Positions 1 through 64,000 of a stretch of 64,000 bases of DNA are shown in pieces. The first letter of the stretch is position 1. Every line of letters begins with the position of its first letter. This stretch comes from Raillietiella orientalis (Eukaryota), in the NCBI GenBank assembly GCA_036172245.1, contig JAYWIR010000053.1:310001-374000 (forward strand), given 5' to 3'. The notes below the pieces were generated by a model. The model was not told where the DNA came from. It ran no database searches and worked only from the letters and a program-made list of their open reading frames with translations. The position numbers and the translations under genes are program-made.

Positions 1-743
1 AGATGAAGTGGCCCCCGGCGTCCTGGAACAGTGGATCATCCCCCTGAAATGGCAGGATGTGGCGTTGCTTGTGGTCCTCTGGGGACTTCCATTCAAAGCA
101 CGCCTTCATCACACAACCCGTGGGGCTGTGGATCCTTATTGTGACCGGTGCGGGGAAAAAGAGACCTTCCCCCACCTTCTCATCGAGTGCAGTGCCATTC
201 GCCCTTTATGGGATCGCCTTACGGCGATCCTGGACTTGCGCGGATGCGGCCCTAAGGACGTTTTTAGGCTCCTCTTCCGTAGTGACGCCTTGTCCCCCCC
301 CTCTTCTGTAGCAGTGTAGCAGTCCTCTGTTGCATTCGAGGATGTGCGGCTTTCTGGAACGCCAATGCCTAGTACGCCGCCAACCGGCAACGCCTTACGG
401 TTCACCCGCCTATTCTGTCGAGACGTCTGCAAGTGGCGCCACTTGGGCGCAGAGAGGACTCAGCTTGTACGGATCCTAAATAGGATCTAGAGGACCTATC
501 CGCCCGCACGGTGATCTTCTCCCTGCCCTCCCATTCCCGAAACATTTGCTCCCTCCCATACTTCAACTATTTGTTTGTTTTTTGTTTTGTTCTTTCCCAA
601 CCCCCGCGGATCGGATGGACCTCTACGGCATAGCGCCCGTAAATACCAAGCTGTTTTGTAGTGGTGGACCTTTGGGTTCATCACGCGACAATCCATTGTG
701 ATTTTATTCTTTTGAATAAATTCCCCGGCATATCCGGGTGAAA
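1..743 (+). mobile_element. 3' fragment of L1/Tx1-type LINE (family C): degenerate ORF2 C-terminal zinc-finger region and 3' UTR
   Basis: CDRCGEKETFPHLLIEC motif; C-rich then T-rich UTR; AATAAA 715-720 followed by CCCGG-catat-CCGGG hairpin; paralogous to 60343-61075. Confidence 0.85.
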
Positions 744-1414
744 ACGCGGTTCCGGCTTCGTGCGGCGAAATCGCTACGGTCGCGATCGATAGCGCGGCAC
801 ACGTTGCTGCGATCGACACTGTTGTTCCAGTCCAGTCCACTGGAAGCATTGTAGCGGCGTGCGAAAGCTCAGCCGCTGCGGTTCGGAACAATAGCGCGCC
901 AGTTGCCGCAATCGAATCGCTTGTTACGTCACCCAAATCGCAACAGGCGGAGAAATCCGTGATGACGTGGAACGCATCCCTGTTGCAAACTTCGCGCAAG
1001 CCGCGGAAGAGTTGGCTGCCTTCCTGAGGCAGCGACCTCCACTTCGTCTTTCTCGCCAATGGAGAGGAGTTTTGCTGACGTTGCTGCCACAGAGCCGTCA
1101 AAGGGAAACCACTCGAGGAGTCGCAGTTGCGGGCATACGTAGCCCAAGGCTATAGACCTGCTCTCCGATATAAGGTGAGTGGTATTCTTTCTGCGCGCGA
1201 CGGGAATTCGTTCAACGATGAACTGACCCGTGTTGGCGTGCGGGAGGAGGACCTTCTCGCCATTATGCCCGTAAATAATATGAACTATTTCAAGGTGCGT
1301 TGCAAAGACGCTGCACTTGTGCAACGCTTGCTGCGCACCCCGTTGTCGATCCGTGGCCAGAAGGTTTTCCCGGCCGCCATGGGCGACTCATTTGTGGCGG
1401 AGATTTTTGACATC
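744..1414 (+). pseudogene. Frameshifted ORF1 fragment of a D-like LINE
   Basis: LRAYVAQGYRPALRYKVSG...FVAEIFDI aligns with FQAYVSSGYMPALRYKISG...FVVQLCDI of the ORF1 at 40765-42010; also contains FAQAAEELAA found in other ORF1s here. Confidence 0.7.
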
Positions 1415-3478
1415 AGATTTTCCGACGTCAGACGTTCATTGAAGTTCGATAGCACTTGTCCTTACTGACCCGGAGGCGGATAAGATCCTTCACTGGCGCC
1501 GGGACGGCAAAAATAAAAGAAAACAAAAACAAAAAGAGAAAAACGTCTGGAGGGCAATGTTTCTGAGGTGGGGGAGGGAAGGAGGGGATCACGGTGCGCC
1601 GTGAGCAGGCCTTTGCATCCGGTTTCGGATGCGAACAAGTGCCGGCAAATGTTTTTGAAGTCGGCGCCAACGGCACGCTTTCTCAAAGGAGAACGCTGCC
1701 CAGTGGATGGCATTCCGGCTGGTCCTACCTCTCCTAGACGCCGTCCACTTCTCCAGGATACCGCGTATGCAGCAGAGCACTGCTACGCTTCCGAAGGCTG
1801 GCAAGCCGTCTCGCGTCACGAGGCGTCTGAATAAGGTTTTCGGGTCACCCTCCGGAATGTTGAGGATCGTCCAGAGTCTGTCCCACATTCCGCGGAGGGC
1901 AACACACTCCAGAATCAAGTGAGAGAAGGTCTCCCTTTCCCCGCACTCTGCACAACTAGCATCCACATTCTCCGTTGTCCAGCGAGACAGGCGTGCTCTG
2001 CTTAAAAGTCGCCACTGGAGGAGAAGCAACGCCGTCTCCTGCCACTGCAGGGGAAGGGTGCCGTTGTTCCATGAGGCTGGGGGCCACCTCACCTCCTCCG
2101 GAGGTATACCGAGCAGCGCGCTTCAGCGTAAAAGTCCGTTCCACGGGACAGTCGGGGTACTAGCGTCCGCTAGTTCCCTCGGCGTCCACGCCTTCAGCAA
2201 ATTTTTCCTGCCTCCGTTGAGGCAGGACACTTCCCACGATGCCTGTTGGTGGCTTTTTTGAAGTTCCCTAAGGAAGGGCAGCACTAAGGCAAGGGGGGTG
2301 AAGGAAGCCCACAGAAGATTCCGTGGGTTGGAAACGATCAACAGGAGTGGCTGACCAGCGTGCCTCCCTCTGCGGAGGCAGGAGAAGTCCTCATCGCTGG
2401 TGTCATTGATCTTCGCCCATGCAGAAACGTACCCCTGAAGCCAAGTAGTGCAATCCGCTGGGATTCAGGAGATCCAAGGGTTGTGTCTCATCAGGGCAAC
2501 CAAGTCCCGCAGCTGATGACCACAATGTTTCAGGCTGCGTTCGTTGGCTACCAAAATTGAAGTCAGTCCGAAGCAGCCGGTTGCCCTGTGAGCAAGGAGT
2601 CTTGCCGATGCATACCAGGGTGCTGTCCAAAAGTTTGCCACAAGAGCAAGTTTTCTGAATTGGTGCTGTCGCTCCATGCGCTCCAACGTCAGGAGACCAA
2701 GTCCAGCGTCCCTGCGTTTAGCGCACAAGTCTTTGAGCGGGACGCGGGGCCTCCAATTGCCCCAGAGGGCTTTTCGTATCAGGCTCCTAGTCCGTGTCCT
2801 AATTTGGTAAGGAGTAGCGCGCACAAAAAGTAGGGGGCGAAGGAGGGGGGCCGCGAAAGCGTTCCATACCGTGGCCCGTTCCTGCAAATGAAACTTGCCG
2901 TCCCGGAACGGGCCGATCGCCAGCTCCACCTTTTGTAGACGGTCGGACCAGGCTTCTGCAGAGCAGAAGTCCCCCAACGGAACGCCAAGGTACTTGATGT
3001 ACCTGCCCGTGGGGATCCCCAAGCGGATCCAGTCCGACCGTCCGGCCCTCGTCGAGTCGGTGAAAAGCAACGACGATTTCGTCCTGTTTACCTGGAGGCC
3101 TGTTCCACGGTATAGCAACTCGAAGAAATCTTCGAGCGCCGATGCCTGGGTTGACCCGGGATGCAGGAGCAGAAGATCGTCGGCATAGGTCGACACGGCA
3201 GGCGTGCCGGGACACGAGCTCGACAGGGTTGCCAAAGTCTCCCTGTATGCTCTTAGCACCAACTCAAAGTAGATGCTGAAGAGCAGGGGGCTGAGGCTGT
3301 AACCCTGCCGGATGCCACGACGAACCGGCACGCCGAAGACGTTGCGGTCGCTGAAATTGATATTGATGAGCGCGAAGCGCCAGCAGGAGCGCAGGAAGGC
3401 CATTAAGACGGCCGGAAATCCCAAGCGTTCCAGGAGTTCCAGAAGGAGTTCCTCGTCGACGCAATCGAAAGCTTTACG
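1415..3478 (-). mobile_element. 3' half of a LINE ORF2 (RT from RKAFD to zinc finger) plus part of the 3' UTR
   Basis: RGIRQGYSLSPLLF, YADD, KYLG in ORF 2465-3424; CAECGERETFSHLILEC in 1589-2092; begins at RKAFDC next to the 5' end of a B element. Confidence 0.85.
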
Positions 3479-3482
3479 TCAG

Positions 3483-5454
3483 CTAGAGCGGACGTGTTTC
3501 CTCGGTGCTCCTCGTGCCGAAAACCGTCCCTAGGTGTAGGCTTCGTGTGTGGTGGTGGTCGATCAGGCAGCAATGCCTGACACGACCACCAGTGCGTGTC
3601 AGGGGGCTGTGGCAACGTCGCCTCCTGAAGGAATGGAGTGCCAGGTGGCGGCGGCAACGTCGCCTCTAAAGAAGGTGGAGTGCTAGGAGGAGGCGGCAAC
3701 GTCGCCTACACTGGCGAAGGAGGTGGGGGCGTCCGCATCTACAAAATCGGTCCCCGCTGCAGCGCGGGCGTGGAGCGATGTCGTGTCGGCGCCATCGCCT
3801 GCAGACGCGGCGGAATTGTCGGCCTATGTGGAGGAGGGGTACAACCCCTCATTGTTCTACAAGGTAGGCAAATTATATTCTTCTGAGAGTGCACGCGCCT
3901 TTTCGAAGGGGATGCGCGCTCTCGATGTTAAAGAGGAGTAGCTCTGCGCTATGACCATTCGTAGCGGGGGGCAGTACGTAGAGGTGATCTGCAACCATGC
4001 AGATCTGGCCCAAAGTCTGCTTAAAATCCTTGTGGTAATGAAAGCATGCAGGCTTCTTCCTGTTACGGCGGACCACAGTATGGTGGTCTACCATTTAGGA
4101 GTTACCGCGCGGATGCGGAAAGAACAGATACGCTTCGCGTTGGGAAAAGAAGGCACGGTCCATGCAGTATGGACCAAGCCTAGTCCTTTCGAGGACTATA
4201 CCACAGTTCAGTGCGGCCTCACGGTTGTCCGTGTAACCGTTTGGGAGGGCTCTACCCTTCCCCACAAACTGGTGGTCGGCGGAGTAAGCGTCGACCTCTG
4301 GTACGTGGGTAAGCCCAAATACTGTGGCTTCTGCAACACGTCGGGACACCTCAAAAGGAGGTGCCCCAACGTACAGTGCCAGGTATGCGGGACAATGGGC
4401 CACACGAAGGAAGTGTGTCCACAATCCGCTGTGCCCGTGGTTTCCGCGAGGAACCTAAAAAAACGCGCGCGGCTGCTACAGAAAAGGCTGGGGGCGAAGG
4501 CTGCCGCTCAAGCTGTGCCACCCACACCCGTGATCCAGGCCGAAGCCGACACCCCGGCAACGAATGCCGAAAAGATCGACAAACGCGGACAGGTGTCGGA
4601 ATGCCAAGAAGTCACAGCGAAAAAGAAGAAAAATTCGAAGAAAGAACGACGAATCGAAAAAAAGCTCGCCTACCAAAATAAAAAACAGCAGGTTAGCGAG
4701 AATTCAAAAGAGAGCAACGTCGTCGTGGAACGCGTCCCCGCCGAACGCCGCAAGGTAGAAATCGCTGCTACCGACGAGCAACCCACTGTTGAAGATGTCA
4801 ACAGCGTGGGGAGCGAACCGGCAGAAGCGTCCTTCATCGAGACCGTGATAGATGACGCCGCCTTCGAGCGTGCGGCGGAAGAGCTGGCTGCATAGTTGCA
4901 GCCAGACCCCTCCAAGGCTGGAAAAAAGGCAGTGAGGCGTCCGGACTCCACCGAGGAGTCGGTAACTTCCGACCTTGAAGCGCAGGACGGAAACCAAGTT
5001 TCCATCTCCGCGGCACCCCGCCGGAAGGCTGGAAGGAATTCCAGCAAACCCCGGAAAGCCCCTCTCCAGGTCGAAGACGTGGAGATGACTTCCGACAGCT
5101 AGGGTGCCATGAGCGTGTGAGAATCCCGGGAATCGTTACTCGAGAGACCATTACGCACAGACACGAAACAGATGGAGGGGGTTGAAGCCGGAAAGGTACC
5201 CAAGGTGCCTGAGGAGGCTGAAACCCTAATGTTCATCTCACCCGCCTCGGAAGAGTCGGGTTCCCCCACACCGTCATCTTCCCGGAAGTAATGCCGGAAA
5301 TCTCCTCCCGCCGTCGTCTGCGCATCGCCGTTTGGAACGTGAACGGAATGACAGACGCCGGCAGGAGACGATACATGGCCGCCATTCTAGGATCGTTCGA
5401 CCTTGTGCTGCTGCAGGAGATCCATGTGATCTCTGCAGAACAAGCGCAGGAGAT
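3483..5454 (+). mobile_element. 5' part of family B LINE: 5' UTR, disrupted ORF1 (ATG 3573, stop 5289-5291), ORF2 start
   Basis: CTAGAGCGGACGTG 5' motif; knuckles CGFCNTSGHLKRRC and CQVCGTMGHTKEVC; TAATG overlap; IAVWNVNG...QEIH; in-frame stops present. Confidence 0.88.
3605..3710 (+). repeat. Three degenerate ~40-nt tandem units (core GGCAACGTCGCCT) in the B ORF1 N-terminus
   Basis: Core seen at about 3611, 3653 and 3695; the B copy near 52600-52670 has two related units (AATPPPEAME / AATSPPEAME). Confidence 0.7.
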
Positions 5455-8400
5455 TTCTCACCCGGTCACGCCTGGGCGTTTATTCCATATAACATAACCA
5501 AAAAAAGCAATTTTACAAAATAAACCAGTTAAGAACCAAACTCCCAACCGACGACTGAACAAGAATAAAGAGAATATTGCTGCCACGCAGGGCAGAGTAA
5601 CAGTTTTGTGAACGATGTGGGGGAGCCGGGAACGCAAAGAAACCAAAATAAAATAAAAACAATGAATAAGGAGGACGGGATAAGGGTCTTTGGGATCGCT
5701 TTGGAAGACACAAAAATAAAAGCATGGGCACCGGAAGTTTTACCGAAAGAACGAGGACGCGGTATATGTGGGCGAGAGGTCGCAGGGGTCAACGGATTAC
5801 GCAGTTCTCAGAGGTGTGTAAACCGGCGATGTTTGCCGGTGATGTCCTAATTCACCTTGTCACGAAGATGAGACCACCTGGAAGCCTTCTTCATGAATTG
5901 AGCTGCAAGCAGGTGAGCCTCCCTTTGCTGCGATGACAACTCCAGGGCGTAGCGGGACTTTACGATGGCGCGAATGCAACACATGGTTGCGACAATCGCG
6001 CCAACCGAAAGTCCATTTCTGCTGAAGAAGCGCCGCAGCACATCATTGGCAGTGCCTCCTTGTGGCATGATGGCCGAAGTGAGCCTTCGCCACAGTTCCC
6101 GGAGGTCACCGCAGTCCAGCAAAACGTGCGGAAAAGACTCGATCTCTCCGCACCTTAAACAGTTTGCAAAGCAGCTCCCCCGGAAGCGAGGCTTGGCTGC
6201 CTTTTTCAGTCTAATGCACAATGTAAAAAGAGCAGCACATCTTGTTTCCACTTAAGGGGGAACACAGAGCTGTCCAAACAAACGGGGGTACCACTACCTC
6301 TCCGGGGGGCACACTTAAATGTTCGCTCCACCGAAGCAGTCCCTTCGCCCGATTCCGAGGTGTGGCGGCTTGCACCAGCTCCTTTGTGGTCCAGCTACGG
6401 AGGAGCTTACTGACTACCGCTATTCTGCAGGAGAGCTCCCATTCCGCCGGTAGGCAACCGTCGTTGCTTTCCCTGAGGGCACACAGCGCTGCGGCGATTG
6501 GTGTGACGGCCAGACGATCAGACAACTTCTTGTCCTGCATGACTTCGTCCATTTGATGACTGAGGAGAAGTCGCAGGCGTCGAAGATCTTCCGGGCGCGT
6601 TCCTTCGGAAGCTGGCCACGATGAAAAAGATTCCTGCCGCCATGCACTAATGTTCATGGGGCGGCAGGAGATCCAACTTTGGGCTTCCAGCAGAGAGGAC
6701 AGCTGCCTCAGCGGGAAGCCAAACCCTATTCTGGTGTGCCGAAAGTGGGGTAGCAACGAAAGCAGTCCCTCGCTTCCCGTGCAGCGCCTCAGTATAAGGC
6801 GTGCGGGTAAGCACCACGGCGTACACCACAGCTTGGCACAGAGCCGCAGCATGCGGAACTGAACCTGCAGTTCGATGCTGTTTAAGTCGAGGATGCCCAA
6901 GCCTGCATCCTGACGCGCCGCCACCAAGTCTTTAAGTCTAACACGGGATCTTGCAGCGCCCCACAACGCTTTGCGTAGAAGGCGCTGCGCCCAGACTTTG
7001 ACTTCCTGGGGGGGTGGACAAACAAAAAACAGGGGGCGGAGGAGGGGAACAACCAAGGTGTTCCAGATGCAGGCCCGTTCCTGCAAGACGAACTCGCCTT
7101 CTGAAAACGTACCAAGTGCAAGCTCTGCCTTCCGAAGGCAGTCCGACCACGCTTCTGAGATGCAGAAGTCGCCCAACGGCACGCCAAGGTACCTGAGCTA
7201 CCTGTCGGTGGGGATCCCCAGGTCGATCCAGTCAGACTGCCCCTCCCACGTCGCACCCACCGGAACAACCATACACTTACTGCTGTTAACGCTCACGCCC
7301 GCACCGCGACGAATCAACTCAAAGAAGTCTTCAAGCGATGTCGCCGGGGTGGACATGGGCAACAGGAGAAGCAGGTCGTCGGCATAGTCTGCCACGGCCG
7401 GCGTACCTGGACAGGAGCTCGGCAGGTTGGCTAGCGTCACCCTGCCTAATTCCTCGTCTTACCGGCACGCCGTAAACGCGACAGCCACAGATAACAATGG
7501 ATGTAATCGCGTGGCGCCAGCAGGAGCGCAAGTACGCCAACAGCGATGCCGGAAGACCCAGACGTTCCGAAAGCTCAAGAAGAAGCTTTTGGTTCACGCA
7601 ATCGAAAGCTTTGTGCAGATCGACTGCAACCGCCAAGGCTCCCGGTGTCTCCCTTTGCGTCCCGCGCCTCCGTCGGTAAGAGATCGGAAGCGTCGCTTCC
7701 GCACGACGATCCACCGCCACACGATGCTGCAATTGCAGTCATGTGCAGATGAACAAGAGATTCGCGTCCATGGACCGCCCAGGAACAGCGTACGTCTGCT
7801 CCGGTCTTACCAAGGATTCCGCGATCCTACCCATCCGCGCCACCTAAAGTGTCGAGAACAACTTGACGTCCGAATTCACTAATGTGATCGGACGCCAGTT
7901 GTTCAGTTGGCGCAAATCTCCGCCTTTCGGCAGTAGACGCACCTTCGCTGAGCGAAACGAGGCGGGGACATCGCCCGAGTCTCGCATCAGCGACGAGAGT
8001 TGGAGCACAAGGCGGATGAGCTCCGCCGCAGAACACTGAAAGAATTCCGCAGGGAGCCCATCTTCGCCTGGCGCTTTTCGTCTCTTGAGCAATGAGATGG
8101 CCGAGGAAATTTCCTCTGCCGTGTAGGGCTCATCAAGACGCGCCCGTTCCTCCTCGTCTACAACAGGTGCATCAATCGGCAGAAGCAGCCGGGAGAGGCT
8201 GCGTTTCGTCTGTGCCTCTGCATACAGAGAAGAGTGATAGCGCCTGACTATCACTCGCACGTCGGCTGGAGCCGAGCATTCCTGGTCCTGGTCGTCGAGC
8301 AGAACTGTCGCCCCTGACTGCCACACCTGGCGCTCGGCCTTGGCCTTGTACTCGGATAATCGACCAACGTCCGCGCGCCTGGAAAAGGAGCGGGCCTGCA

Positions 8401-10005
8401 GAAAATCTCTGCTGTTGGCTACGCCCTCTCCGAAGCCGCGCGGAAGCTGGTGCAAGGGAAACCGGCACCATAACTCGCGGACCGATCTTTACAGATCGTC
8501 CCAGTCCTCCAGCTCACTTATGGCAAAGTCGAGGAGGTACTGGCGAATATACTCAGCCGCCTCCAGGTTGCTTAGCCAGTCTGCCGACATCCTTCAAAAA
8601 CAGTTTGGAGGCCCCTTGCCTGGCGGGAGCAACTCGAACTCGAGCCTGTTGTGGTCTGAAAGCACGGACGGCATGGCACCTCTCCGACACACTCGACAGA
8701 GCAAGTGTTCATCAAGGTATACGTGGTCCGGCGTTGCTGCCATAACAGGGTCGCTAGCGAACAAGTTGCAGGCGTGCACGGACGCGCACATCTCTTCCGC
8801 TAGCAACTTTTCCCTTTTCTGGGATCTATTCTCGGAAAGCAGGTGGACGTTAAAGTTCCCCGCAATGAGATGGGCCACAGTAGGGTGAGATCGAGTGAGT
8901 TACTGGCTTTGAAGGGTACCGAAGAACTCAATCCTTTCGGTCCATCGTCCAGCACCGCTCGGCGCGTACTCGTTGGTTACGACAAGGTCGATCGAGTCGG
9001 ACCACTTGAGTACAAGCTGTCCCACTCGGCCTTCCGTGTCGAAACGAACGCTGCGCACCGCTCCCGCCAAAGTTCCTTGCACGAGGAAAGCGACGCCGCA
9101 CGTACGTGCAACGCCGCACCTATAAAGTAGCGTTCCGCCCGCGCGCCGTACGATTTCGGCAGCCTGCTCTCCGGAGATGCTGTGAATCTCCTGCAGGAAC
9201 GTCAAGTCGAAGGCGGGCAGAGCGTCAGCCAATAGTCGCCTCTTCTCCTCGTGTTGGAGCCCGTTGACGTTCCAAGAGGTTAAGGCAACACGACGAGAAG
9301 ACGCAATTACCCTCATGACGGCTGGGAAAGCGAGGCCGTGGTGCTCGCCTCACCCGGCGAGCGGGCAGTAAGCAGCACGACGGGCTGGAGGGCGCACTCG
9401 CCACCGGCCTCAACTGTGCTGCACGTAATCGGGTGCTCCTCCCCGGGTGCAGAACCTGTGGGTTCCGGGGTGAGCACTCGCCGTTTCGCGGCGAGTGTGT
9501 CACGCCTCTGGGCTTGAGCCCTGCGTGCGCTCGCTCTTGCGCGAGTGACGCGTCGTTCAGCGGCGCTATCGGACTCCTTTGTGGAGTCAGATGCTCGCAC
9601 GATCGACGTGCGCTTGCATCCATCCGATTGCACCGGGATAGCCTTCCCGGCGGTCACAGAAGCGGACTTGCACGCGTTGAAGGCGCAGGCTTTTTCCTTG
9701 GAAGAGGCACAAGCAGCGCGTGTTTTCGAATTCCCGCGACTGCGTTTTCCTTTGGAAGAGCTCAGGGATTTATGTTGCGTAGCTTTTTTTGGAGATTTTT
9801 CTTTCCTCCTGTCCACAACCTGCTATTCGCCTCCGCGATTTTCGGAAGCTTCCGCGACAGAAGTTGCGGAAACCTCCAGGATTTTGGCTGCGTTCTCTGG
9901 GGTCGTTGCTTTCGCTACGCCTTTAAATGGCGGCAACGGAGTCATATTGTTGAAAGTTGTTCGCTGACTCGGCAGGAGATTCCTCCTCTCCTGCCGAGAC
10001 AGCGA
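5455..10005 (-). mobile_element. Family D LINE copy D1: ORF1 C-terminal half, disrupted ORF2, 3' UTR
   Basis: Colinear with the intact copy at 24941-29558; has stops, frameshifts and a 62-nt RT deletion near 7439; terminal hairpin 5461-5476. Confidence 0.9.
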
Positions 10006-15627: not shown

Positions 15628-15643
15628 CCTGCCGAGTCGGTGA

Positions 15644-23035: not shown

Positions 23036-23037
23036 TC

Positions 23038-37103: not shown

Positions 37104-37116
37104 GTCTTCCCCTTTT

Positions 37117-42123: not shown

Positions 42124-42125
42124 TA

Positions 42126-43816: not shown

Positions 43817-44140
43817 ACCCGACCGTCGTCATCGAAGCGCACGCCCTTCACGGCAGCGTCGATGGCCGGCTTCACGAAGAACGCGACCCCGCAGGTGTTG
43901 CGGAGGCCCCACCGCCAATACAACCGACCCCCCGCGATCGTCTCGATCTCCTGGAAGTCTGCCGCGGTGATCACGTGTATCTCCTGCAGCAGGGCCAGGT
44001 CGAGCTCACGCAGGGTGTCGGCCGTATCTCGCCTGTTACCGTCGTCGCGCAGCCCGTTGACGTTCCAAGAGGCGGCGCGAATGCAATGGCGACTGGCGAG
44101 CCCAGGTGTTACTCCTGGGAAGATGGCGATGCGGCGTCCG
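43817..44140 (-). mobile_element. Inverted segment: ORF1 end and EN N-terminus
   Basis: Minus strand reads ...ASPSSQE* then ASWNVNGLRDDGNRR...LQEIH; overlaps the next segment by an 82-bp inverted repeat. Confidence 0.8.
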
Positions 44141-52794: not shown

Positions 52795-52798
52795 AGCG

Positions 52799-54912
52799 CA
52801 CAAGGCGTTCGACTGTGTAAACCAGGAACTCCTCTTGGAGCTCCTGGGCCGCATGGGCATTCCACCCTCCCTGATTTCCTATCTGCGCTCTTGCTTGCGG
52901 AACTCGATAATCTCGATTACTTTCAGTGGACAACAGGTGTATGGCGTGCCGGTGCGGCGGGGCATAATGCAGGGCGACAGCCTCAGCCCCCTGCTTTTTA
53001 GCACCTACGCTGAGTTTGTGCTGAGAGCGTAAAGGGTGACTTTGGTCCCCTTGCCGAGCTCGTGCCCCGGCACGCCAGCCGTAGCGGCGTATGCCGACGA
53101 TTTTTGCTCCTCTTACCTATGTCCACCCCGGCGGAGGCGGTCCGAGATTACTTCGACCTGCTTAGCCGTGGGGCCAGATTACAGGTTAACAAGGCGTAGT
53201 CGTCACTGTTGCCAGTTGGAGCGACGTGGGCAGGGCAGCAGGACTGAGTTCGTCTGGGGATCCCCACGGTGAGGTGCATCAAGTACCTCGGTGTGCCGTT
53301 CGGGGAATTCTACCCTGCGGAAGCGTGGTCCAGCTGCCTCCAAAAAGTCGAGGCGGCGATCGCCCCGTTCCTGGAAGGCAAGTTTCACTTGCCGGAACGG
53401 GCCGCGGCGCGGAACGCCTTTGCGGCCCCCATCCTCCGTGCCTTGCTTTTTGTTTGCCCCGCTTCCGTGGAATCTAAAAAGCGGACGAAGGACCTCCTCC
53501 GCATAGCTCTTTGGGGCAAGGGGAGGCCCCGAGTCCCTTCGAAGGACTTGTGCGCTCCGCGTCGGGATGGCGGTGTCAGCATCATGACGCTGGAGCGCGT
53601 GGAAATCCAGCTGCGATGGCGGACCCTCGCCATCGAAGCGAAGATGTGGAGCACCGCTTGGTGCACTCCAACCCTCCTTTTGGCCAGGCGTGTGTCCCGC
53701 TGCGAAGGACTCGCATCCTTTCTTCTGTGCCCTGGCCGAAAGATTCGAAGATGCGGTCTACTGCTCGGCCGCATGACAACCCTGGCAAAGGAGAACGAGT
53801 GGATGGTTTGTGGCCCTGCCAACTCCTCCGCTTGGCTGGAAGAGACTGCTGGCACCTGGGCCAAGCAGAACCAGAGGTGCGAAGAACGGATGAACTGCCT
53901 GCGAGTCGGCTTTTACGCCCGCCGAACTCTCTGTGAAATTCTTGAATTTCCATCGAGTTGCACTTGGGCGGAAGGCACACCCCTTGTTACGGCGATGCCC
54001 TTCCTCCAAAGGGCGCTTCACGGAAGCCGCAAGCCAAGGTGGCAAGTCTGCTGCCGTATCGCAGGCAGAGAGAAGATGATCAGCGGCTGGACCATGGGAG
54101 AGTTGACAGATGCAACGACCCCTAGTCTCCAGGCGCGTGGATTAAGAAGATGAAACGAGCTGCTCGGCATTCGATTGGATGACCTGAAGTGGCCCCCGGT
54201 TCTTCTTGGATCCAGGATTCATCTTCTGAAGTGGCAAGAATCGGTGCTTCTGTGGCTGCATTGTTGTCTACCCTGCAACGCGCGCCGCTTCCACCGGACG
54301 CGGGGAAGAGTAAATCCTGCGTGTGCCAGGTGTGGGGAGCGGGAGTCGCTCCCCACCTTATAGTTGAATGCCCTGCCGTCCAGTTTCTTTAGTATCGTTT
54401 GAAAACGGCCCTCCGGATACCGGATGGTGGCAATGTTGGATGTGTCTTCAGTCTTGTCTTCGTGCGGGACGCCCTCAGTCCAGCCGCAGCCCTGGCAGCA
54501 CTTTGCAGCATTCGTGGTATCCTTGCCTCCTTGAGTGATGCCAAAGATGAAGACTACATCGTGAGGGACGTCAACGAGTATGCTTCTCGCTTCCTGCAGA
54601 GAGCTACCCGATGTCCCCACCTAGGAAAACTGAAAATGGAACTAGAAGGCATCCTGCAAAGGATGGGCGCTCCCAGCAGTTTTCTGTGATCCCTTCCCGG
54701 CCCTCCAAACTTTTTTTTGTGGTTTGTTTTTCTTTTTTATTTTTTTTTTGTTTTCTTCCCCATCACCCTTTACTGCCGAGGAGAGCCACACCAAGCTGCG
54801 TCCCGGTGTCCCGGCAGTTCCAAAATTGCGTGGCCGTCAGGAAAGCCTTGTACCACGTTCTGTATTGACCGTCGAAATGTTTTTAATAAACGTCCCGGCG
54901 TATCCGGGTGGC
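52799..54912 (+). mobile_element. 3' half of a LINE ORF2 (from HKAFD) plus 3' UTR and terminal hairpin
   Basis: GIMQGDSLSP, YADD, KYLG, CARCGERES; AATAAA 54885-54890 then CCCGG-cgtat-CCGGG. Confidence 0.87.
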
Positions 54913-57512
54913 ATCGCCGAAACCTTGAGGAAGTTGATGGAGGGGAAACTGTTCACAGAACTCTCAGACTAAGCGTTTTATTTTGTCCCAGTCAGCGAGA
55001 GTCTGCAGTTCGCAACTACGCAGGAATGCGCCCAGATGTTCGCGCGTTCCAGCGAGTCGCAACCAGTCCCCCGGCAGGCGCCACGCTTTGGAGGGTGGAC
55101 CTCTGTCGCGCGGATGAATGTTGATCACTAGCCGAAGGTGATCGGACAGCTCCGACGCAATTGCTCCTCGAGTCCCCTTCCGCGTACACAAGTGGTTATC
55201 GAGGAACACGTGGTCGATTCTGCTTCTCGCCCCGGCTTCATCGGCCAACAAGCTGCGTGTGTGCATAGCCGCACACAACTCGTTGATCAATTGTGCTCGT
55301 ATGTCGGGCGCTTCCGACAGCAGGCGGACGTTAAAGTCTGCCGCTATCAGATGCGCCCGCAGCACGCCTGCTTCGGCCAGCCAGTCTCGCCTCAGGGCTT
55401 CGAAGAACGCAGTGCGTTCTGAGCGCCTGTGGCTGGTGCAGGGCGCGTACAGGTTCGTGACTACGAGGTCGATCGATTCGGAACACTTAAGGACAAGTTG
55501 TAAGACTCGACCTTCCTCGTCGAACTGTGCACTGCGCACCGCATTGGGGACGGTTGGCTTCAGCAGGAAGGCCACTCCGCGGGAGTGGTCTCCTCCACCA
55601 CGCCAAAGTAGCCTCCCCCTTTGAGCCTGTGTATTTCCTGGGCGTCCTCTGCTCTGAGGGCATGCACCTCTTGAAGAAGTGCCAGATCGAAAGGTCGCAG
55701 GGTGTCGGCCACTCTACGCCTTTTGCTTTCGCTACGCAGCCCGTTGAAATTCCAACAGGCTATACACAGCTGCCGGCAAGAGCGATTCCACGCATCATAC
55801 TTGTGATGGTGGTGGCGTGTGTATTGCCGCCTCCTGTTCGGGAGGCGGCTGGTCGTTGTCCATCTGCGGTGGTGGCGTTTCGGCAACGACCGGAACGTCT
55901 GCAGCCGGACTGAGGTCGATAGGAAAGACCGACCGGATGCTGTCGATGGAGGGATCCCGCGACCTCCCGGACATCGCCTCCTCGCTATCCGAGGGCATCT
56001 CCTCCTCCTCAGCCTGAGGGGGAGCGACGCGCATAGGGTTGCGCGACTTCCGGCCAGCCTTCCTCTTCGTAAGGGCGACAATGGGAGGGTTCCCGGGTTC
56101 CGCCTCGGACCCGGAAGTTTTCGGGCCCTTAACTACCGCCGGACGTCTGACGGACTTCTTTGCAGCCTTAGGCGGCTGTATTAAAGTGGCCGCGAGGTCC
56201 TCCGCCGCCTTCGCGAAGTTTTTCTCGTCGCTGCTGCTCGCGTGTTTGTCGCAGGATTCCTGCGGCGGTTCCGCGGCGTTCGCGACGGTTGCGGGAGTTG
56301 CGTTCGCCGATCGACGCTCGATCGACGGAACGCGCTCGATTGTAACGCGGCATTCCTTTATGGACTCTCGCGGCGAAATTTTTGGCTTCTCGAGCGCGGG
56401 TTTTTTGGGAACGCTCGCGTTCTGATTTTCGTTATTTTTTGTAGGTGTTTTTGTTTTTTTTTTTTGTGTTTCTTTTGCTTTCTGGTTTGAAACGACTTTT
56501 TAGTTTTCCTCGTCGGCAGTTGGCTCAGAAGTCTTCTTTTGAGGCTCCTGCTCCTTGTGCACGACTTCTTCTGAGGTCGGTTGTTGGTCGCTTCTTTTTT
56601 GGTTTTCTGGCTTCTTCCCCTCATTTGTCGAAGGGGCTGAAGGCGTTGTCGCGGCGTTTTTCGGGCACACAGCACTAGTGTGGCCCTTCGCGCCGCATGC
56701 TGGGCATGTGGCATCCGGGCATCTCTTTTTAAGATGCCCGAATGTGTTGCACAGCCCACAGTATTTTTCCTTCCCCACGTACCAGAGGTCGACGAGCTCG
56801 TCGTTGACTTCATGGTTGTGGGGAAGTTCTGTGTTTTCGCGGATAGTTACGCGCGCGGCCACTCGCCCACTGAATGCGCCTCGATAAGTAAAGGCGTTGG
56901 GCTTTGACCACATCGCGTATATCTCCGCGAATTTGTTGATTTCAGTGCGGATGGCTTCATCGGTCATCCGCACCGTTGTACCCGTGAGGTGGATCACCAT
57001 AGAGTGATCCACCGTGTGTGGGAGGAGATTCCGCCCTTCGAACGGAACGGGCGTGCAGTGCAGTTTGTGTGTGAGCGCTGCATCTTTGCAGATCAGCTCC
57101 GCGAACTGCCCGCCGCTCCGAATCGAGAAGCAAAGAATCTCCTCGTCAGAGATTCCCATCCTACGGATGGCGTTTATAAATTTCCGCGTTGTGAGCGGTG
57201 AATAAAGATTTCCTACCTTGTAAAGAAGGGCTGGGTTGTAGCCCTCCTTTATGTAGGCCTGCACTTCGGCGGCCACGTCCGGCGGAGCCGCCGCGGCCAC
57301 CTTGTTCCACGCCCTCGCCGGGTTGGCGGGGGCTGATTTTTTGGTGGGGCATGACCTTACCTCCGTAGGTTGGGGAGACGTGGGCCTCACGTCTCCCGTC
57401 GCAGATACTGCGGCGTCTTCAGGCATTTCTGCCTTCCAACGGCCGCACTTCCAATTCACACAACACCTAGTTTTGGCTTCGCTCGCGGGAGCTGACCAAA
57501 AACGCGTGCTGA
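54913..57512 (-). mobile_element. 5' part of a LINE: 5' UTR, frameshifted ORF1, EN to LPQGFGD
   Basis: CGLCNTFGHLKKRC, CPACGAKGHTSAVC; TGATG overlap near 55793-55797; IACWNFNG, NLYAP, SDH. Confidence 0.87.
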
Positions 57513-57513
57513 A

Positions 57514-58182
57514 CCGGCGCAGGTTTGCCGCATCGTGCGAAGATTCTATTCCTTCTTGTACGCGCCGTTAACACCGGAGCGCCATTTCGCGCAGCGCCTG
57601 CTGCCGGATGGTGCTCCCGCGCTTAAAAAGCAGGATCGTTTCCGGATGGCGGAACCGTTCACGATGGTGCAGGTCGTCTCCGCCATCGAACAGCTAATGA
57701 AACGGAAGGCACCAGGATAGTACGGCCTGCTTGCGGAGTTTTACTACCGCTTCGAACCAGAGCTGGCCCCCCTGGTGCTCAGGTTACGTACGCTGATCGG
57801 CGAACACGGCGAAGTTCCCGCCTCGTTGCGGTCAGCAAAAGTACGTCTCCTGCCGATGTCAGGAGACTTAGGCAACATTGGCAACTGGCGTCCCAACACA
57901 GTGGTGGATGCGCACGCAAAGTTGCATGCCAAGTTGTGGGCTGAGCGTTTAGGGCGGGTGGCCGCTTCCGTGATCATTCCGGAGCAGACCTACGCTGTTC
58001 CCGGACAAAGCATCGAGACAAACCTGCTCCTCGCCAGCACATGGTGGCAGTTGCGACAACGCGTTTCCCAGGAAGGTCAAGAGTGTCTTGCGCTCTTTTC
58101 TGACCAGGAACATCGGATAGAGGGTGGGAGGGACTCGGCGGGAGCCTTTGCAGTCGCGGTCGACTTGCGCAAAGCATTCGAT
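57514..58182 (+). pseudogene. ORF2 fragment (PAQVCRIV to DLRKAFD)
   Basis: KRKAPG, SAKVRLLP, WRP, EQTYAVPG. Confidence 0.83.
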
Positions 58183-59527
58183 TTTCACCCGGATTTCTCC
58201 GGGTCGTTTATTAAAAATAAACTTTATAAAGAAATTATTTATGGCTGTGGCAATGCTCCAGCCGGAAGGGAAGAACCACGGAGCCTGCCAATTCACCGGT
58301 TTCTAGACCGGTACGGTCCACCAAGGCAGCAGGAAAAAGGGGAAAAACGAAAAAACTAAACAAAAAGAAACAAAGGGTGGGAGGGAACGGGAAGGGATCA
58401 CTGTTGCTGCTGGGGCCGCATCATCCCTCTCAGGATGCTGGCATGCTCTTGTTTGTTCTGAACATCCAGGTGGGGCCATCGCGACGCCCTTCTCAGGAAT
58501 TCGGAGGCGCACTGCATGGCTCCCTGATCGCTAGGTCCTCCCGTCGCCGTGCTCCAGGCGGCGACGATCCCACGAAGGCAGCACAAGGCTGCTATCGAGG
58601 ACGCTGGCCGCAGGGCGTCGGCAACGAACAAGGCTTTTAGTGCGTCCCTGGGGTTGCTGCAAGGGATACCGATGGCCGCAGCAAAGCGGAACCAAAGGGG
58701 CCCAAGGGCAACACAATCAACTAGGAGGTGGGGGAGGGAATCCCGTTCCCCGCACCTTACACAATTGGGATCCACCGCTCCCCAGGTCCAGTGGTGTCGA
58801 CGGGCGTTGCAGCGGAGTCCCCAGTGCTGCAACAGAAATGCCGACTATTGCCATTTTAGGGGGAGGATGGAAATGTTCATAAGAATCGGGGGCCACTTCA
58901 GATGTTCAATGGGAACATCCAGCAGCGCTCCCCAGCGCAGAAGTCCATTAGGAGGCGTACTCGGGGTCGCAGCATCAGTTAGCTGGCCCGTCTTCCACTC
59001 TCTCTGCTTCTTCTCCTTCCCGGAGATTTTTATTGTAACCTCCCACTTCGCCGCAGCATCGCTGTCCTGATGTTCCACTAGGGAGTCCAGCGCAGCAGCG
59101 AGGGGGGTTGTTCCTGACCACGCTCTCTTCTTAGGATCCTCCAGGATCTCACGGACCGTGCAACTTCTGTAACATTCAAACAGGAACCTTCGTTCCTGAT
59201 GGGAGGGTTGCATGCCGAACTGTCCCCACGTACGAACGGTTTCCTGCAACCAGGCACTACCGTTCGCAGGGAGACAGGTGATCCATCCTTGATTTTTCCT
59301 TGCCAGCGCACCCACCCTCCGTAGCTGAAACCCACATCGGTTGATGCGGCTTCGATGGAGTGCAAGAAACGATGTAATTCCCGTCTTGGCGGTGGCTTGC
59401 TGAAGGAGGAGACGTGCAGGGACGCACCAACAAGTGCACCACAACTCCGGCACAAGTGCCAAAATCCGGAACTGGAGCTGCAGCTCCAGCCGCTCCAATG
59501 TCAGGAGGCCGAGACCACCGACCCGAC
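58183..59527 (-). mobile_element. 5'-truncated B-subfamily LINE (ORF2 C-terminus, 3' UTR, hairpin)
   Basis: GGLGLLTLER to CVRCGERDSLPHLLVDC; similar to 47281-48620; hairpin 58188-58204. Confidence 0.86.
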
Positions 59528-61075
59528 GCAAGTTCCAAGAAGGCAAGTTCTACTTGCAGGAACGAGTCGCAATGTGTAACGGGTTTGCGGCCCCCCTCCT
59601 TCACTCCCTACTTTTTGACTGCCCCGCCCCTTATTTTATTCGGAAACGAGCAGCGGGCCTCCTGAGGACAGTTTTTTGGGGCAAAGGAAGGTCCCGTGTG
59701 AGGCTCAAAGACTTGTGCGCTCCACGTAAGGACGGTGGACTTGGCGTACTTACGCTGGAGCGCATGGAATTGCAACTTTGATTCAGGAATCTCGCCCTCG
59801 CGGCAGAACTGTGGGACACGCCCTGGTGCATCTCAGCACGCCTCCTGGCCCAACGAGCCTGCGATTCCGGCGGACTTTTGTCGTTTCTGTATGCGCGCTT
59901 CGGTAGAAGAGCACATTGTGGCTCTCACCTGCTACGCATGGCCGTTGCAGTTCGGGAAAACGTCTGGATTTCCTGCCTCCCAGAAAACTACTCTACCTGG
60001 TTGCACGAGTCAGTGTCCATCTGGAAGAAGATCCACGTTCCGGCGGGCACAAGGAAAAATTGCCTGAAAAGGCACGCACGCTGGACGCTGCAGGAGATCA
60101 TGCAGTCATACGACAAGCTTCTGTGGGCCTTGATAACCCCCCTCGCCCCAGTGCTACCCCTCCTTATGAATGCCAGAGACAGTAGCGAGCAGGGGAAATA
60201 CACCGTGTTTTGCACCATACCCGGCAGGACACAATCGATAAAGGCGTGGACATCTCGACAGTTAGCTGACGCTGCGACGCAGAGTGTCTCGCCCAACGGA
60301 CTTCGACGCTGGGGAGAGCTACTCGGACTATCTCCGTAGGAGATGAAGTGGCCCAAAGAGTCCTGGAACATTGCATCCCTCCCCCTGAAATGACAGGATG
60401 TGGCGTTGCTTGTGGTACTCTGGGGATTACCATGTAAAGCAAGCCTGCACCACACCACCCGGGGGGCTGTGGATTCTAATTGTGACCGGTGTGAGGAAAA
60501 AGAAACATTCCCCCACCTTCTTCTTGAGTGCAGAGCCCTCCGCCCTTTGTGGGATCGTCTCGCGGCGATCCTGGACTTGCGCGGATGCGGCTCAAAGGAC
60601 GTCTCAAGGCGCCTCTTCTGTAGTGACGCCTGGTCCCTGCCCGATAGGATAGCAGTCCTCTGCTGTATCAGAGGAATAGTGGCAGCTTGGAACGCCACCA
60701 GAAGAAGGTGTCTGCCAACCGGCAACGCCTGACACTGGACTCGCCTTTTCGCGCGCAGTGTCTGCAAGTGGCGCCACTTAGGCGCTGAAAGAATTCAGCT
60801 TGTTCGGATCCTGAATAGGATCTAGAGCACTTGTCAACGCGCACCGTGATCCCTACCCTGCCCTCCCACCCTTACAACATTTGTTCCCCCCCACAATTGA
60901 ACTTTGTGTTTCATTTTGTTTGTTACTTTCCATCCCCGCGCATCGAGAGGACCTCTCAGGCATGCAGTCGGTAACCAGCAAGCTGTTTTAAAGTGGTGAA
61001 CCTTGAGGTTTGCTACGCGAAATTTCCTGTATTTTTATTTCACTGAAATAAATGCCTCGGCACATCCGGAAGTGA
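59528..61075 (+). mobile_element. 3' fragment of family C LINE
   Basis: KFQEGKFYLQER to CDRCEEKETFPHLLLEC; AATAAA 61047-61052 and degenerate hairpin; paralog of 1-743. Confidence 0.86.
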
Positions 61076-63787
61076 ATCGCGACGGCGCGCGTCACCATGG
61101 ACGACCGAATGCTCATGCCTTCGCAGATCCTAGTTGGTGACGTCGTCGTCTATCTCCGGTTTTTTGGGCAATCCCCCGCTTGCGGGAAAAGCGGGAAAGA
61201 GTGCCACCGTCCGCGGAAGTGTCCAACACGCAGTTGCCGATACTGTAAGCTGCTCGGCCACTCGATTAACGAGTGCGCCTATCTAGAACGGAAGAGGAGG
61301 GCGAGAAACCCCCCCGTCACATCGCCGTCCGTGCCGAATCCATCCGCTTCGTCGTCGGGAAGAAATCCGGCGCGAACAAAGCTTCGCAGTTGAGAAGTGA
61401 TAAGTTTTCTCGCGCAAGCGATTCTCGGAGCAATGCTCCACAAATACCCGCGCGAAAGGACAAGAAGCTTTAGAATGCTGCTTTGGAAAATCCTCGAGCG
61501 ACCCAGCCCGACGATATCATCGGGCCGGCTGAAAAATCTCCGCTTCCGACCGCTCTCGCTCCGGATCCAAATAGCGGTAACACGCAAGGGAAAATCACCA
61601 AAGCTACAAAAAAAAAGTCGCGCGCCCCTTTGCTTGCGAAAGGCAAGGCGGCCACGGCGGGCCGAACGTCAGCAAAGGCTGAAAAGCCGCCTGCGAACTC
61701 CGAGAATACCACCACCCTACCCGCACCTTCCGGTAAGGAGGTGCAAAAGGCAGACGTGGCGAAGGAGACACTGGCCTCCATCGCCGTATCCGAGGCCTTG
61801 GAAAGAATGCAAAGGATTCCGGAAACCCTCTCGCTTAACCGACGTAAACCGGAAGGCGGCGAGGATGGCTGGACCTTTGTTGGGGGAAGGAAGAAGGAGC
61901 GCGAACCGCGCAATCCTTCCTACGGCGGTGGAGATCACGTCTTTCACGCCGAAGGCACGAGCAGCGAAGGCTGCAATAGCGCCTCGCGGGACGACGGCAA
62001 TGACCGCCGTTTCGCTTGCATCGGCTAAGGAGCAGGTGCAGTGCGTAACGGGAACGGAATCGTCTCCCGCCGCGAGCGCGAAAAGTGAGCCGGCATCTAT
62101 GGCCAAACAAATGAGGGGGGCGTCCGCCTCCTAGGACGGCGTCACCGACGCGGGATGGACTGGCGTCTCCAGGACGCCCAGAAAGGGGAAGAAGAAGGTT
62201 GACCCTTCAATATTCCCCATCCTTAAGGTGGGTGGGAGGCAAAAGAGAAGCATGCCGAAGAAGGTGCGTACCTAGGTACGCAATACGACTGCTTGCTGTG
62301 TCTCCGTCGCTTCGCGCGAGAAGGCGGCTGCGGAAGCCAAAGCTCAGGAAGCTGCGTTGGCGACAGCGACGACAACAGCGCGGGCAGGGCAAGCCTCCAC
62401 CTGCCGAAACAAAAAGAGACTGGCAAAACGCCAGTCTCGCGCCAGGCACTCGGACTCCGAGGTGGAGTCCGAGTGCAACCAAATAAAGCGCGCATCCTGG
62501 GGTGAGCCGGTAGCGTGCCGGGCTAAAGTGCTAAGGCACGAGCCTGTTCCCGGAGGCGGTTCCGGCTGCTGCACGGAGACCGAGGCGATGATCCTCGGCT
62601 CACAGGACTCAGCTGGGCGCGATGTGGCGGCGAACCTGAGCGATTCCGCTTCCCAATCCGCTCTCCCACCCCCAGACTTCTCGCCGAACGGGGCGAGGAG
62701 CACGCCGTCATGTCCGCAGCAGTGATGCGTGGACTCGCGTCCGCTCGTTGCGTCAGCGTAGCCTGTTGGAATGTCAACGGGCTAGTTGATGCTGACAAAA
62801 GGCGGAAGGTAGCCAACGCTTTGCGCGCGTTCAATCTGGTGCTGCTGCAGGAGATACATAGCATCTTCGAACGGCAGGCATCGCATCTGGAAGAGCGCGC
62901 GGGCGTCACGCTACACTGGCGGCAAGGCACAGCACACGTGCGGAGTCGCGTTTCTCGTCCTAGGCAGGGTGGCGGAGGCGGTGCGCAACGTTTGTTTCGT
63001 AGAGGAAGGTCGTGTGGGCCAACTTCTCCTCAAGTGGTCCGAATCGATCGACCTGGTCGTTACGAACATCAACGCGCCCAGTGGCGGCCGGCATTACGCG
63101 CAGCATCTTGCATTTCTGGGTGGCCTGCGCAGCCGCTGGCTCGCTGACTCCGGCCCTAACGTGGCGCACCTCCTTGCAGGACACTTCAACATCCACCTGC
63201 GAACAGAGGAGAGATGCCGCTTGAGGGAGAAGCAACTGGTGAGCGAGGTATGCGCGTCCGTGCGCGTACAAAACTTGCTTGCTGGTGAGCGCTGGATGGA
63301 GAGTTCGCCGGATTATGCGTTCCTCGATGAACACCTGCTCTCACGAGTAGGTCGGAAACGGCGCCTGCTGTCCGCGATTTCGCATCATCCGAGACTGGAG
63401 TTCAAGCTCCTGCCGCCTGGCAAAATTGCCTCCGATGAATGTTTGGAGGCTGCGGCCGACTGGCTTAGCAATTCGGAGGCGGCGGTGCATCTTCCCCAAC
63501 ACCTCCAGAGCTTCGCCATGCGTGTACTCGAGGACTGGGACGATCTCAAAAGATCGGTCCGCGATTTCTGTTGCCGGTTCCCCTTGCACCTGCTTCCCCA
63601 CGGCTTCGAAGAGGGTGTCGCGAACTGCAGATACTATCTGCAGGCGCGTACCTTCTCTTGATGCCCGGACGTCCGGCGTCCGGCGGAGTACAAGGCCAGA
63701 GATGAGCGCCAGGTTTGGCAGTCTGGAGCGGCTTGTCTGCTCCATGACGGTGGCCAGGAATGCTCGGCTGCAACCGAAGTTTGTCAT
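61076..63787 (+). mobile_element. D-like LINE fragment: ORF1 from the knuckles onward, EN and linker
   Basis: CRYCKLLGHSINEC; TGATG at 62723-62727; VACWNVNG, LQEIH; EN similar to D2. Confidence 0.83.
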
Positions 63788-64000
63788 TCAAATGTGCCGG
63801 GGCATTTATTTTTCTAATTTTTTACAAAAATTAGATAATAGAGTCTTTAGAAAGATGTTTTCTGTGAAGAAACACTGGGTTCTCCCACCTTGCTTGACGT
63901 GTCGGTTGCCGGTGCATAGACCGGTTAGGTCCATTCCCGAGGCGCAGGGGAAGGGAAAACTAAAACAAAAACAAACAAATAGAAAGATAACGGGGAGGGA
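63788..64000 (-). mobile_element. 3' UTR end of another LINE, running off the window
   Basis: Minus strand: C-rich, then T-rich tract, then AATAAATGCCCCGGCACAT, matching the terminal motif of other copies. Confidence 0.75.

Follow-up and report, generated by a model that had tools for sequence, protein, structure and literature searches.

The stretch considered here is a 64-kb window of the Raillietiella orientalis genome (assembly GCA_036172245.1, contig JAYWIR010000053.1, positions 310,001 to 374,000), and its subject is a nest of long interspersed nuclear elements (LINEs) in which several related families appear to insert at fixed positions within one another. All coordinates below count from the first letter of the window. 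The G+C content of the 64 kb is 52-61%, and all mapped pieces are LINE sequence, lying on both strands; no non-LINE sequence was found in the window in tblastn maps or Pfam searches. Self-comparison, protein-to-DNA maps and breakpoint reading resolved the window into approximately 25 pieces with 25 junctions, counted by hand. The cluster, made up of LINEs only, extends over at least 64 kb; its nesting occurs between different families, most pieces are long, and only two inserts are truncated at the 5' end.

Families were defined by nucleotide identity across shared segments. Family A is represented by four copies and maintains 43-50% identity to every other family. Family D consists of two copies, D#1 and D#2, while two further pieces (e14 and e1b) are D-like at 55-68%. 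Family B includes a full-length reference copy (B-ref) together with e3, e7, B#1 and B#3, and the single piece e6 constitutes family B2. H1 and e5 form family H with a mutual identity of 79%, e12 represents family G, to which e13 and e1 probably belong as well, and e2, e10 and e11 are three separate lineages of one piece each. Across the families, the N-terminal part of the endonuclease (EN) is 0.43-0.69 identical.

Pfam analysis of the second open reading frame (ORF2) of family D (1201 aa) and of family A (1011 aa) identified Exo_endo_phos and RVT_1, both over the cut-off, as in LINEs carrying an apurinic/apyrimidinic-type (APE-type) EN, and the catalytic motifs SWNVNG, QE(I/T)H, GD(F/L)N, SDH and YADD are legible in both translations. 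Pfam also found an ORF1 with zf-CCHC alongside the ORF2 that encodes EN and reverse transcriptase (RT); the ORF1 of A, D and e6 has either CCHC knuckles or no Pfam match at E up to 1. Three frames remain open, namely the D#2 ORF2 and both the ORF1 (629 aa) and the ORF2 of the A copy b2. The L1 clade in the narrow sense is marked by a Transposase_22-type ORF1 and a long poly(A) tail. The elements of the window differ from such mammalian-type L1 in both respects, as their ORF1 is not Transposase_22 and their tails are 3-4 A behind a hairpin. A zf-RVT domain behind the RT is a marker of the Tx1 clade and the L1 superfamily. The D C-terminus matched zf-RVT at E=0.043 and 14.9 bits, which is under the 27.5-bit cut-off, and the A C-terminus gave no match; PF13966 is present in many database relatives of D ORF2. 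A homologue search with the D ORF2 protein returned 44 matches at 18-32% identity with no close relative found among them; the best were 20-32% identical and mostly unnamed, and the few named sources belong to several kingdoms. An Atlas cluster search returned generic RVT_1, Exo_endo_phos and zf-RVT clusters only.

The 25 junctions are unevenly placed. Fifteen of them fall at four recurrent sites, with five at S1, three at S2, five at S3 and two at S4. S1 lies in the RT motif DL(H/R)KAFD, at aa 579-583 of the intact D ORF2, and it contains the five B-family junctions that the first-pass annotation had assigned to this motif. Three of these are B 3' ends (at 22110, 47280 and 58182) that are nucleotide-identical across the junction, reading CCGGG(T/G)G-AAAA on the insert side and TCGAA on the host side, with the flanks diverging only beyond. 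The other two are B-family 5' ends at 52787 and 3491. The full-length B-ref (47280..52787, minus strand, 5.5 kb) is antisense at S1 of H1. The left part of this host (46429..47279, plus strand, aa 302-583) terminates in the left target-duplication copy, CATAAGGCATTCGA, and its right part (52788..54910, plus strand) contains 11 extra nt, the right duplication copy (52799-52812), the C-terminal part of the RT and the H1 3' end at 54910. B#1 (20969..22110, plus strand) is a 5'-truncated B copy whose 3' end cuts the H-like host e5 (22111..23042, minus strand, aa ~275-583) at S1, e5 being cut a second time at aa ~275 by the 5' end of e6. B#3 (58182..59528, minus strand) is likewise 5'-truncated and has its 3' end at S1 of the family G piece e12 (57509..58181, plus strand, RT aa 361-583), which also hosts the 5' end of e11. 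The remaining B-family 5' end, that of e3, lies at S1 of e2 (1480..3490, minus strand), a member of a separate family that extends from the RT KAFD to the C-terminus and has a truncated 3' untranslated region (UTR). As a separate observation, B-ref is without approximately 17 codons (aa 48-64 in D numbering) at 50917-50922, just upstream of the position used by D in other B-type elements; the gap may be a scar left by repair, or coincidental.

S2 lies in the EN motif EQAxEI (aa 61-66) and accounts for all three junctions at which D ends had been placed earlier. Two D 3' ends, at ~5455 and ~24941, occupy the same base, and a D 5' end lies at 42116. The host of D#1 is e3 (3491..5455, plus strand), which comprises a B-family 5' end (GACGTG), ORF1 and the EN as far as EQAQEI. 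The host of D#2 is e6 (23043..24941, plus strand), which comprises the B2 5' end, ORF1 and the EN as far as DQAREI. The right flank of D#2 at S2 is e7 (42117..43829, plus strand), a B/B2-type EN-RT piece (aa 62-632) whose own KAFD is unoccupied. D#1 (5456..10004, minus strand) includes the 3' end, ORF2 and distal ORF1 as far as the 15-mer targeted by family A. D#2 is divided in two by A copies. Its 3' portion (24942..29557, minus strand) has the intact 1201-aa ORF2 frame (25297-28902) and distal ORF1 to the A target, and its 5' portion (40765..42116, minus strand) runs from the target 15-mer through proximal ORF1, which includes a CCHC knuckle, to the GACGTG 5' end at 42116. D#1 is without 54 nt of RT sequence that are present in D#2 (7436-7444 versus 26936-26988), the ORF2 protein being otherwise 91% identical.

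S3 is the 15-mer CCTGCCGAGTCGG(C/T)G in D ORF1, which is found next to or between all four A copies, at 9990, 15628, 29543, 35181 and 40765. The earlier claim of a single A target in D ORF1 was borne out by these five copies, although the block measures 15 nt and not the 16 originally given. In D#1, the full-length copy a1 (10005..15627, plus strand) lies mostly within a conversion tract common to b1; it is followed, after a 15-nt target copy, by the tandem copy a2 (15643..20967, plus strand), which is without the last ~300 nt at its 3' end. In D#2, both b1 (29558..35180, plus strand) and b2 (35196..40764, plus strand) are full length, the latter being the copy with two open frames. An inverted repeat in D ORF1 (9955-10004 and 29508-29557), with arms of ~18 nt and a spacer of 7 nt, has the target 15-mer as its right arm. 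The left arm contains the 15-mer on the opposite strand with 1 mismatch (9962-9976 and 29515-29529) and is unused by A in the window.

S4 lies in the linker between EN and RT, at LPRGFGEG (aa 302-310). The H1 3' end at 54910 occupies it in e11 (54911..57508, minus strand), a member of another family with a 5' end, ORF1 and the EN as far as aa ~310. S4 is likewise the place where the 5' end of e10 at 46428 enters H1; e10 (44706..46428, minus strand) is of yet another family, with a GACGTG 5' end and ORF1, and is cut off on its 3' side. Two paired linker sites had been proposed. S4 is one such pair, but in place of the second we found two unpaired 5' ends, that of e6 at aa ~275 of e5 (23043) and that of e11 at aa ~361 of e12 (57508).

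The use of these sites is consistent within each family. The 3' ends of B are at S1 in 3/3 cases, those of D at S2 in 2/2 and those of intact A copies at S3 in 3/3. Every insert at S1-S4 is antisense to its host, and the strand switches at 20/25 junctions. These four recurrent sites agree with the central proposal of the first-pass annotation, that sibling families each have their own fixed position and fixed antisense orientation inside other LINE families. That these positions are conserved coding motifs applies well to S1, as KAFD is found in 10/12 RT copies of the window, and moderately to S2 and S4, but not to S3, which is family-specific ORF1 sequence. When 13 random insertions into a 5.5-kb element with two strands were simulated, eight or more events at shared sites (within 3 nt) occurred in 0/200,000 runs; random insertion within elements is therefore excluded.

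The element ends are also uniform. The 3' ends consist of AATAAA followed by a 5-bp CCCGG/CCGGG stem, whose loop varies, and by 3-4 A, the family A hairpin being different. The stem CCCGG-N5-6-CCGGG is kept in the B, D, H and e1 families and is degenerate (CCTCGG...CCGG) in e13. Among eight stretches folded, the hairpin was predicted in 3/4 of the folds that held it whole. Zepp elements have long poly(A) tails, in contrast to the AATAAA-hairpin-A3-4 tails of the window. Most 5' ends start with G(A/T)ACGTG, and the 5' junctions of B and D have 9-12 additional nt between the duplication and GACGTG. The target duplication of B-ref is 14 nt long and 12/14 identical (47266-47279 versus 52799-52812), while that of A is 15 nt, with 13-15/15 matching the target 15-mer at its five copies. 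An offset of about 14-18 nt between the 5' and 3' junctions had been noted in the first-pass annotation, and B-ref and A conform to it; D#2 has the 14-nt spacing with a poorer match, which is weighed below. Target duplications, defined 3' ends and 5' truncation (B#1 and B#3, a frequent state of LINE copies) are together the hallmarks of target-primed insertion.

Further evidence was obtained from X1, an independent sequencing run with short contigs and a word share of 0.12, for which findings refer to the matches listed. One X1 contig joins 47274 directly to 52808 and thereby represents an empty site, with an H-type host, a single 14-mer and no B. Different flanks are uncommon in X1: among the matches listed, only 0.06 of 630 contig pieces continue into sequence unlike the 20-kb LINE stretch. 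Another X1 contig leaves the match at the exact H1 3' end (54910), adds ATAA and resumes at 43920, with only 32 nt on the shorter side; in the X1 sample, an H-like family may thus have an additional homing site at position 43920 (antisense, EN ~aa 75). A T-rich low-complexity tract in the H1 3' UTR (54700-54760) reaches an X1 depth of 678 with many unrelated loose ends, which is an artefact from contigs of other organisms. A metagenome scan using a 20-nt B junction identified 6 loci, all of them chance matches (40-47% G+C) with no BLAST similarity to the window.

We consider it likely that the window is a nest of related LINEs in which at least three families (A, B and D; the number is probably six or seven) each enter another LINE family at a single fixed sequence and always in one orientation, through target-primed reverse transcription. 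The evidence for such family-specific, orientation-fixed homing of LINE into LINE is good for B and D and reasonable for A and H. In the proposed mechanism, the EN would nick the host coding strand at a fixed nucleotide, the nick positions being placed within 1-2 nt. Family B would nick after AAGGCNTTCGA (TTCGA) in the RT motif KAFD, D after GAGAT in the EN motif EQAxEI, A after CTCGGCAGG (CGGCAGG) in D ORF1, and H after TTCGGCGATGC (GCGATGC) in the EN-RT linker. The resulting 3' OH would prime the copying of an RNA that ends in AATAAA, the 5-bp CCCGG/CCGGG hairpin and 3-4 A. A second-strand cut 14-15 nt away would then give rise to the target duplication, and a few extra nt (9-12 at B and D) would be added at the 5' junction. 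The regenerated duplication could be hit again, leading to the head-to-tail A arrays, and layered hits would produce a LINE-only island in which the host ORF is broken. Because the site sits in sequence conserved among relatives, each new host copy would be a new target. We infer that the EN, and not RNA pairing, sets the specificity.

The alternative in which RNA pairing does set it is unlikely. Annealing of read-through RNA to the nicked target has been described for R1 and R2, and homing here could similarly be guided by read-through transcripts whose downstream host sequence anneals to the nick, the EN being only loosely specific. Every resident copy sits in its target, so that read-through past the AATAAA-hairpin would append target sequence to the transcript; the 3' junctions are base-exact in three hosts with differing flanks, and a copy of the target follows every 3' end in the tandem A arrays, all of which such guidance would accommodate. 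The short A tail (AAAA or AAA) between hairpin and target, however, suggests that the RNA ends there, and the 0.43-0.69 identity of the EN N-terminal part across families is as expected if the EN sets the site.

Very unlikely, in our judgement, is the explanation that one or a few ancestral nested composites were copied within the cluster through segmental duplication, unequal crossing-over and gene conversion. A large internal duplication certainly exists, as 7436-20967 and 26989-40467 are 94% identical and share an arrangement of one D and two A copies. Within it, the a1 and b1 copies share a 99.5% identical tract of 5.5 kb (9862-15340 versus 29415-34893) that begins within the D flank and breaks off ~290 nt short of the A 3' end; this tract indicates gene conversion or recombination that ignored element boundaries. 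The D#2 flanks that match only 11/14 also agree with this explanation, as do the rearrangements evident at the junctions 20967, 43829, 44122, 44705 and 59530. Composite copying, on the other hand, does not predict that identity jumps at the junction base, and it does so in every B and D comparison. The B junction pairs are 0.945, 0.813 and 0.852 identical on the insert side versus 0.777, 0.672 and 0.670 on the host side, and the comparison coordinates sat 5-28 nt inside the insert, an offset that can only inflate the host figures. D#1 and D#2 are 0.93-0.98 identical, while their hosts e3 and e6 are 0.57-0.74 identical, and the change falls at the junction. The S1 hosts moreover belong to different families, with 0.79 identity between H1 and e5, 0.58-0.66 between e12 and all others, and 0.71-0.74 between e2 and all others.

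Substitution patterns point in the same direction. The ratio of nonsynonymous to synonymous divergence (dN/dS) is 0.26-0.36 for the S1 host pairs at a dS of 0.65-1.6, and 0.29-0.43 for the D hosts e3 and e6 at a dS of 0.58-1.4. The insert pairs have a dS of only 0.05-0.33 with a dN/dS of 0.59-0.73, so that host dS is 2 to 20 times insert dS. Purifying selection accompanied the divergence of the host pairs, as in live lineages. Since broken composites would evolve neutrally and in step, composite copies are very probably not the source of the B and D sites, and the X1 empty site with its single duplication copy likewise speaks against them. The possibility that all same-site junctions descend from one duplicated ancestral insertion, which the first-pass annotation had named as a refuting outcome, accordingly does not hold for B and D. 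We conclude that D inserted at S2 in at least two independent events, and that B inserted at S1 in at least three and probably four. For family A, the a1/b1 pair was considered as two independent insertions and rejected, the high-identity tract not following the element boundaries. The a2/b2 pair is 0.80-0.96 identical and more diverged than the surrounding D flanks, a pattern that argues for putatively separate A events.

Regional targeting, in which insertions are drawn to a chromatin domain such as a centromere-like LINE island of the sort suggested for Zepp and the junctions coincide through micro-homology or a local nick preference, is highly improbable. All 64 kb being LINE sequence favors it, and the Zepp and ZeppL clusters are described, in the available excerpts of the literature, as nests targeting existing copies (PMC8226300, PMC3446292). 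Such targeting would nevertheless not yield base-identical, fixed-orientation junctions in three diverged hosts or the family-specific sites of the window (B, D and A each confined to its own site, S1, S2 and S3 respectively), and the simulation excludes random insertion within elements. An assembly artefact from repeat-induced misjoins between LINE copies is scarcely credible even though the region is highly repetitive and one X1 contig joins 44144 to 44708 differently, with 77 other letters between, as misjoins are expected in homologous same-strand stretches and not at complete termini with tails, duplications and strand switches, and as the inverted join 43817/44225 is present in one X1 contig too.

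A number of observations do weigh against site-specific homing as the account of this window. All counts of fidelity, orientation and junctions come from one 64-kb window. Six of the 25 junctions are irregular (truncations or an inverted duplication), and two 3' ends, at 744 and 61076, adjoin same-strand elements at non-recurrent places. The general claim of antisense insertion and strand alternation stood for S1-S4 but failed at these two, and with some seven family-site combinations set against two unclear same-strand cases, the antisense rule is statistically weak, being suggestive and not secure. KAFD is unoccupied in 8/12 RT copies, including those of D and e7 with 14-mers near-equal to the occupied ones, and occupancy of S1 is for this reason far from saturated. 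The 14-nt duplication of D#2 is only 11/14 identical, whereas the 4.6% divergence between D#1 and D#2 leads one to expect ~0.65 mismatches; recombination within the A array may have brought together two flanks of separate origin. Decay at CpG was considered as the cause of this poor match and rejected, given a CpG observed/expected ratio of 0.99 and a mismatch of 0.068 in CpG context versus 0.041 elsewhere. For the two B 5' junctions, e3 and B-ref are 0.74-0.92 identical near the 5' end with hosts at 0.73, which makes them inseparable by identity, and a between-host dN/dS of 0.28 is the sole indication of their independence. Finally, because gene conversion acts in this region, inserts that are more alike than their hosts are not proof by themselves, and the independence of the A events is less secure.

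The relations among the families have a direction. In the window, A inserted into D, D into B and B2, B into H, G and e2, and B2 into an H-like element; H inserted in turn into e11, e11 into G, and e10 into H. The mutual targeting originally envisaged was not seen in the 64-kb window, which contains neither a reciprocal family pair nor an insertion within A, and the relations amount to a directed chain. Successive waves of younger families would also leave such a pattern. The inserting family may benefit from a safe harbor, and the hosts may be disabled. We put forward only tentatively, as something that may well prove incorrect, a hyperparasitic LINE hierarchy in which each EN would have evolved to home to a fixed ~14-25 bp block in the genes of another family, the RT KAFD included. 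Each family would then reside chiefly or exclusively within the others, hold down their copy number and, through its own activity, build LINE-only islands like those serving as centromeres in some algae.

Several known systems provide a context for this organization. R1 and R2 insert in 28S rDNA and TRAS and SART in telomeric repeats, the R2 EN being of a different type. They resemble the window elements in entering a multicopy target by target-primed insertion that is exact to the base and fixed in orientation, in having fixed duplications or deletions of the target, and in reusing a site in tandem, but their targets are host multicopy genes or repeats and not retrotransposons. The closer comparison is to the Tx1 clade. 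Insertion into specific sequence, a mark of that clade, is found here for families B, D and A, a likeness that concerns insertion behavior. According to the available excerpts of PMC4494074, Tx1 families target transposons, with Tx1L inserting into the piggyBac-type Tx1D of Xenopus and crocodilian families into Mariner-N4_AMi, into specific long terminal repeat (LTR) retrotransposons and ~300 bp inside Harbinger. Insofar as those excerpts describe them, Tx1 elements resemble the window elements as sibling APE-type LINEs that each have their own sequence target, with transposons among the targets and the specificity attributed to the EN. Known Tx1 targets are DNA transposons, LTR elements, small nuclear RNA genes and microsatellites, whereas the targets in the window are coding positions of related LINEs, including RT KAFD, and several layers are stacked at one locus.

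LINE-only islands have likewise been described elsewhere. In excerpts of PMC8226300, PMC3446292 and 10.1101/2022.06.16.496473, Zepp of Chlorella and Coccomyxa and ZeppL of Chlamydomonas appear as L1-type clusters that nest into existing copies, with one cluster per chromosome (PMC8226300, PMC3446292). ZeppL has one to two families per species (one in C. reinhardtii) and is self-nesting, its arrays consisting mostly of 3' ends (PMC8226300, in the part available). On this partial description, the likeness to the window lies in LINE-only islands built by insertion into existing copies, in 5'-truncated copies and in tandem stretches; the difference is that the window has at least 6-7 families, mostly long or full-length pieces, and base-exact, antisense, family-specific sites. 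Cnl1 of Cryptococcus, as excerpted from 10.1101/2021.08.11.455996, forms single-family subtelomeric arrays with a preference for G+C-rich sequence, no fixed site and target duplications that are often absent. It resembles the window, to the extent of that excerpt, as a non-LTR element amassing in arrays of its own copies, and differs as one subtelomeric family without a fixed site from the multiple site-specific families found here.

Our literature search, which did not cover the supplement of PMC4494074 listing more Tx1 targets, found no account in which several LINE families home to fixed coding positions in each other. LINE-into-LINE homing is an extension of the known transposon targeting of Tx1 type and the nesting of Zepp, and not a new kind of system. 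If the homing interpretation is true, the window offers a panel of related APE-type ENs that share one scaffold and differ in their long targets, which would be useful for the study of LINE specificity and for programmable RNA-templated insertion. It would also provide a sequence-level route to LINE-only islands of the Zepp kind, self-reinforcing in that each insertion supplies targets for the next family, and the inactivation of relatives at a catalytic motif would represent transposon competition without host defense.

The remaining pieces lie at the margins of the nest. The window opens with e1 (1..744, plus strand), the 3' part of a G-like LINE that terminates in AATAAA, the CCCGG/CCGGG hairpin and AAAA. 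It is followed on the same strand by e1b (745..1475), a D-like 5' region with ORF1, across a non-recurrent junction. Toward the other end, e13 (59533..61076, plus strand) comprises a G-like RT C-terminal part and 3' end and may have been continuous with e12 before a deletion; directly after its 3' end comes the D-like e14 (61077..64000, plus strand), which starts at D position ~665 of ORF1. The 3' flanks of e1 and e13 were compared as a possible common site, which was rejected on finding that the alignment stops at the hairpin. In the center, e8 (minus strand) and e9 (plus strand) occupy 43816..44705 as an inverted duplication of an EN fragment with an irregular junction. Their arms are near-perfect (43816-44225), and the same opposite-strand join, 43817/44225, occurs in one X1 contig.

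Additional features concern base substitution and internal repeats. The CpG observed/expected ratio of 0.99 applies window-wide, transitions make up only 48% of the D#1/D#2 differences, and the repeat island carries no sign, in the whole window, of methylation-driven decay or of decay resembling repeat-induced point mutation. The 5' region of B-type elements contains 42-nt repeats (3596-3707 and 52597-52679), and the N-terminal part of A ORF1 contains tandem repeats of 27, 36 and 48 nt in all four copies (10265-10476, 15941-16075, 29818-30028 and 35456-35617).

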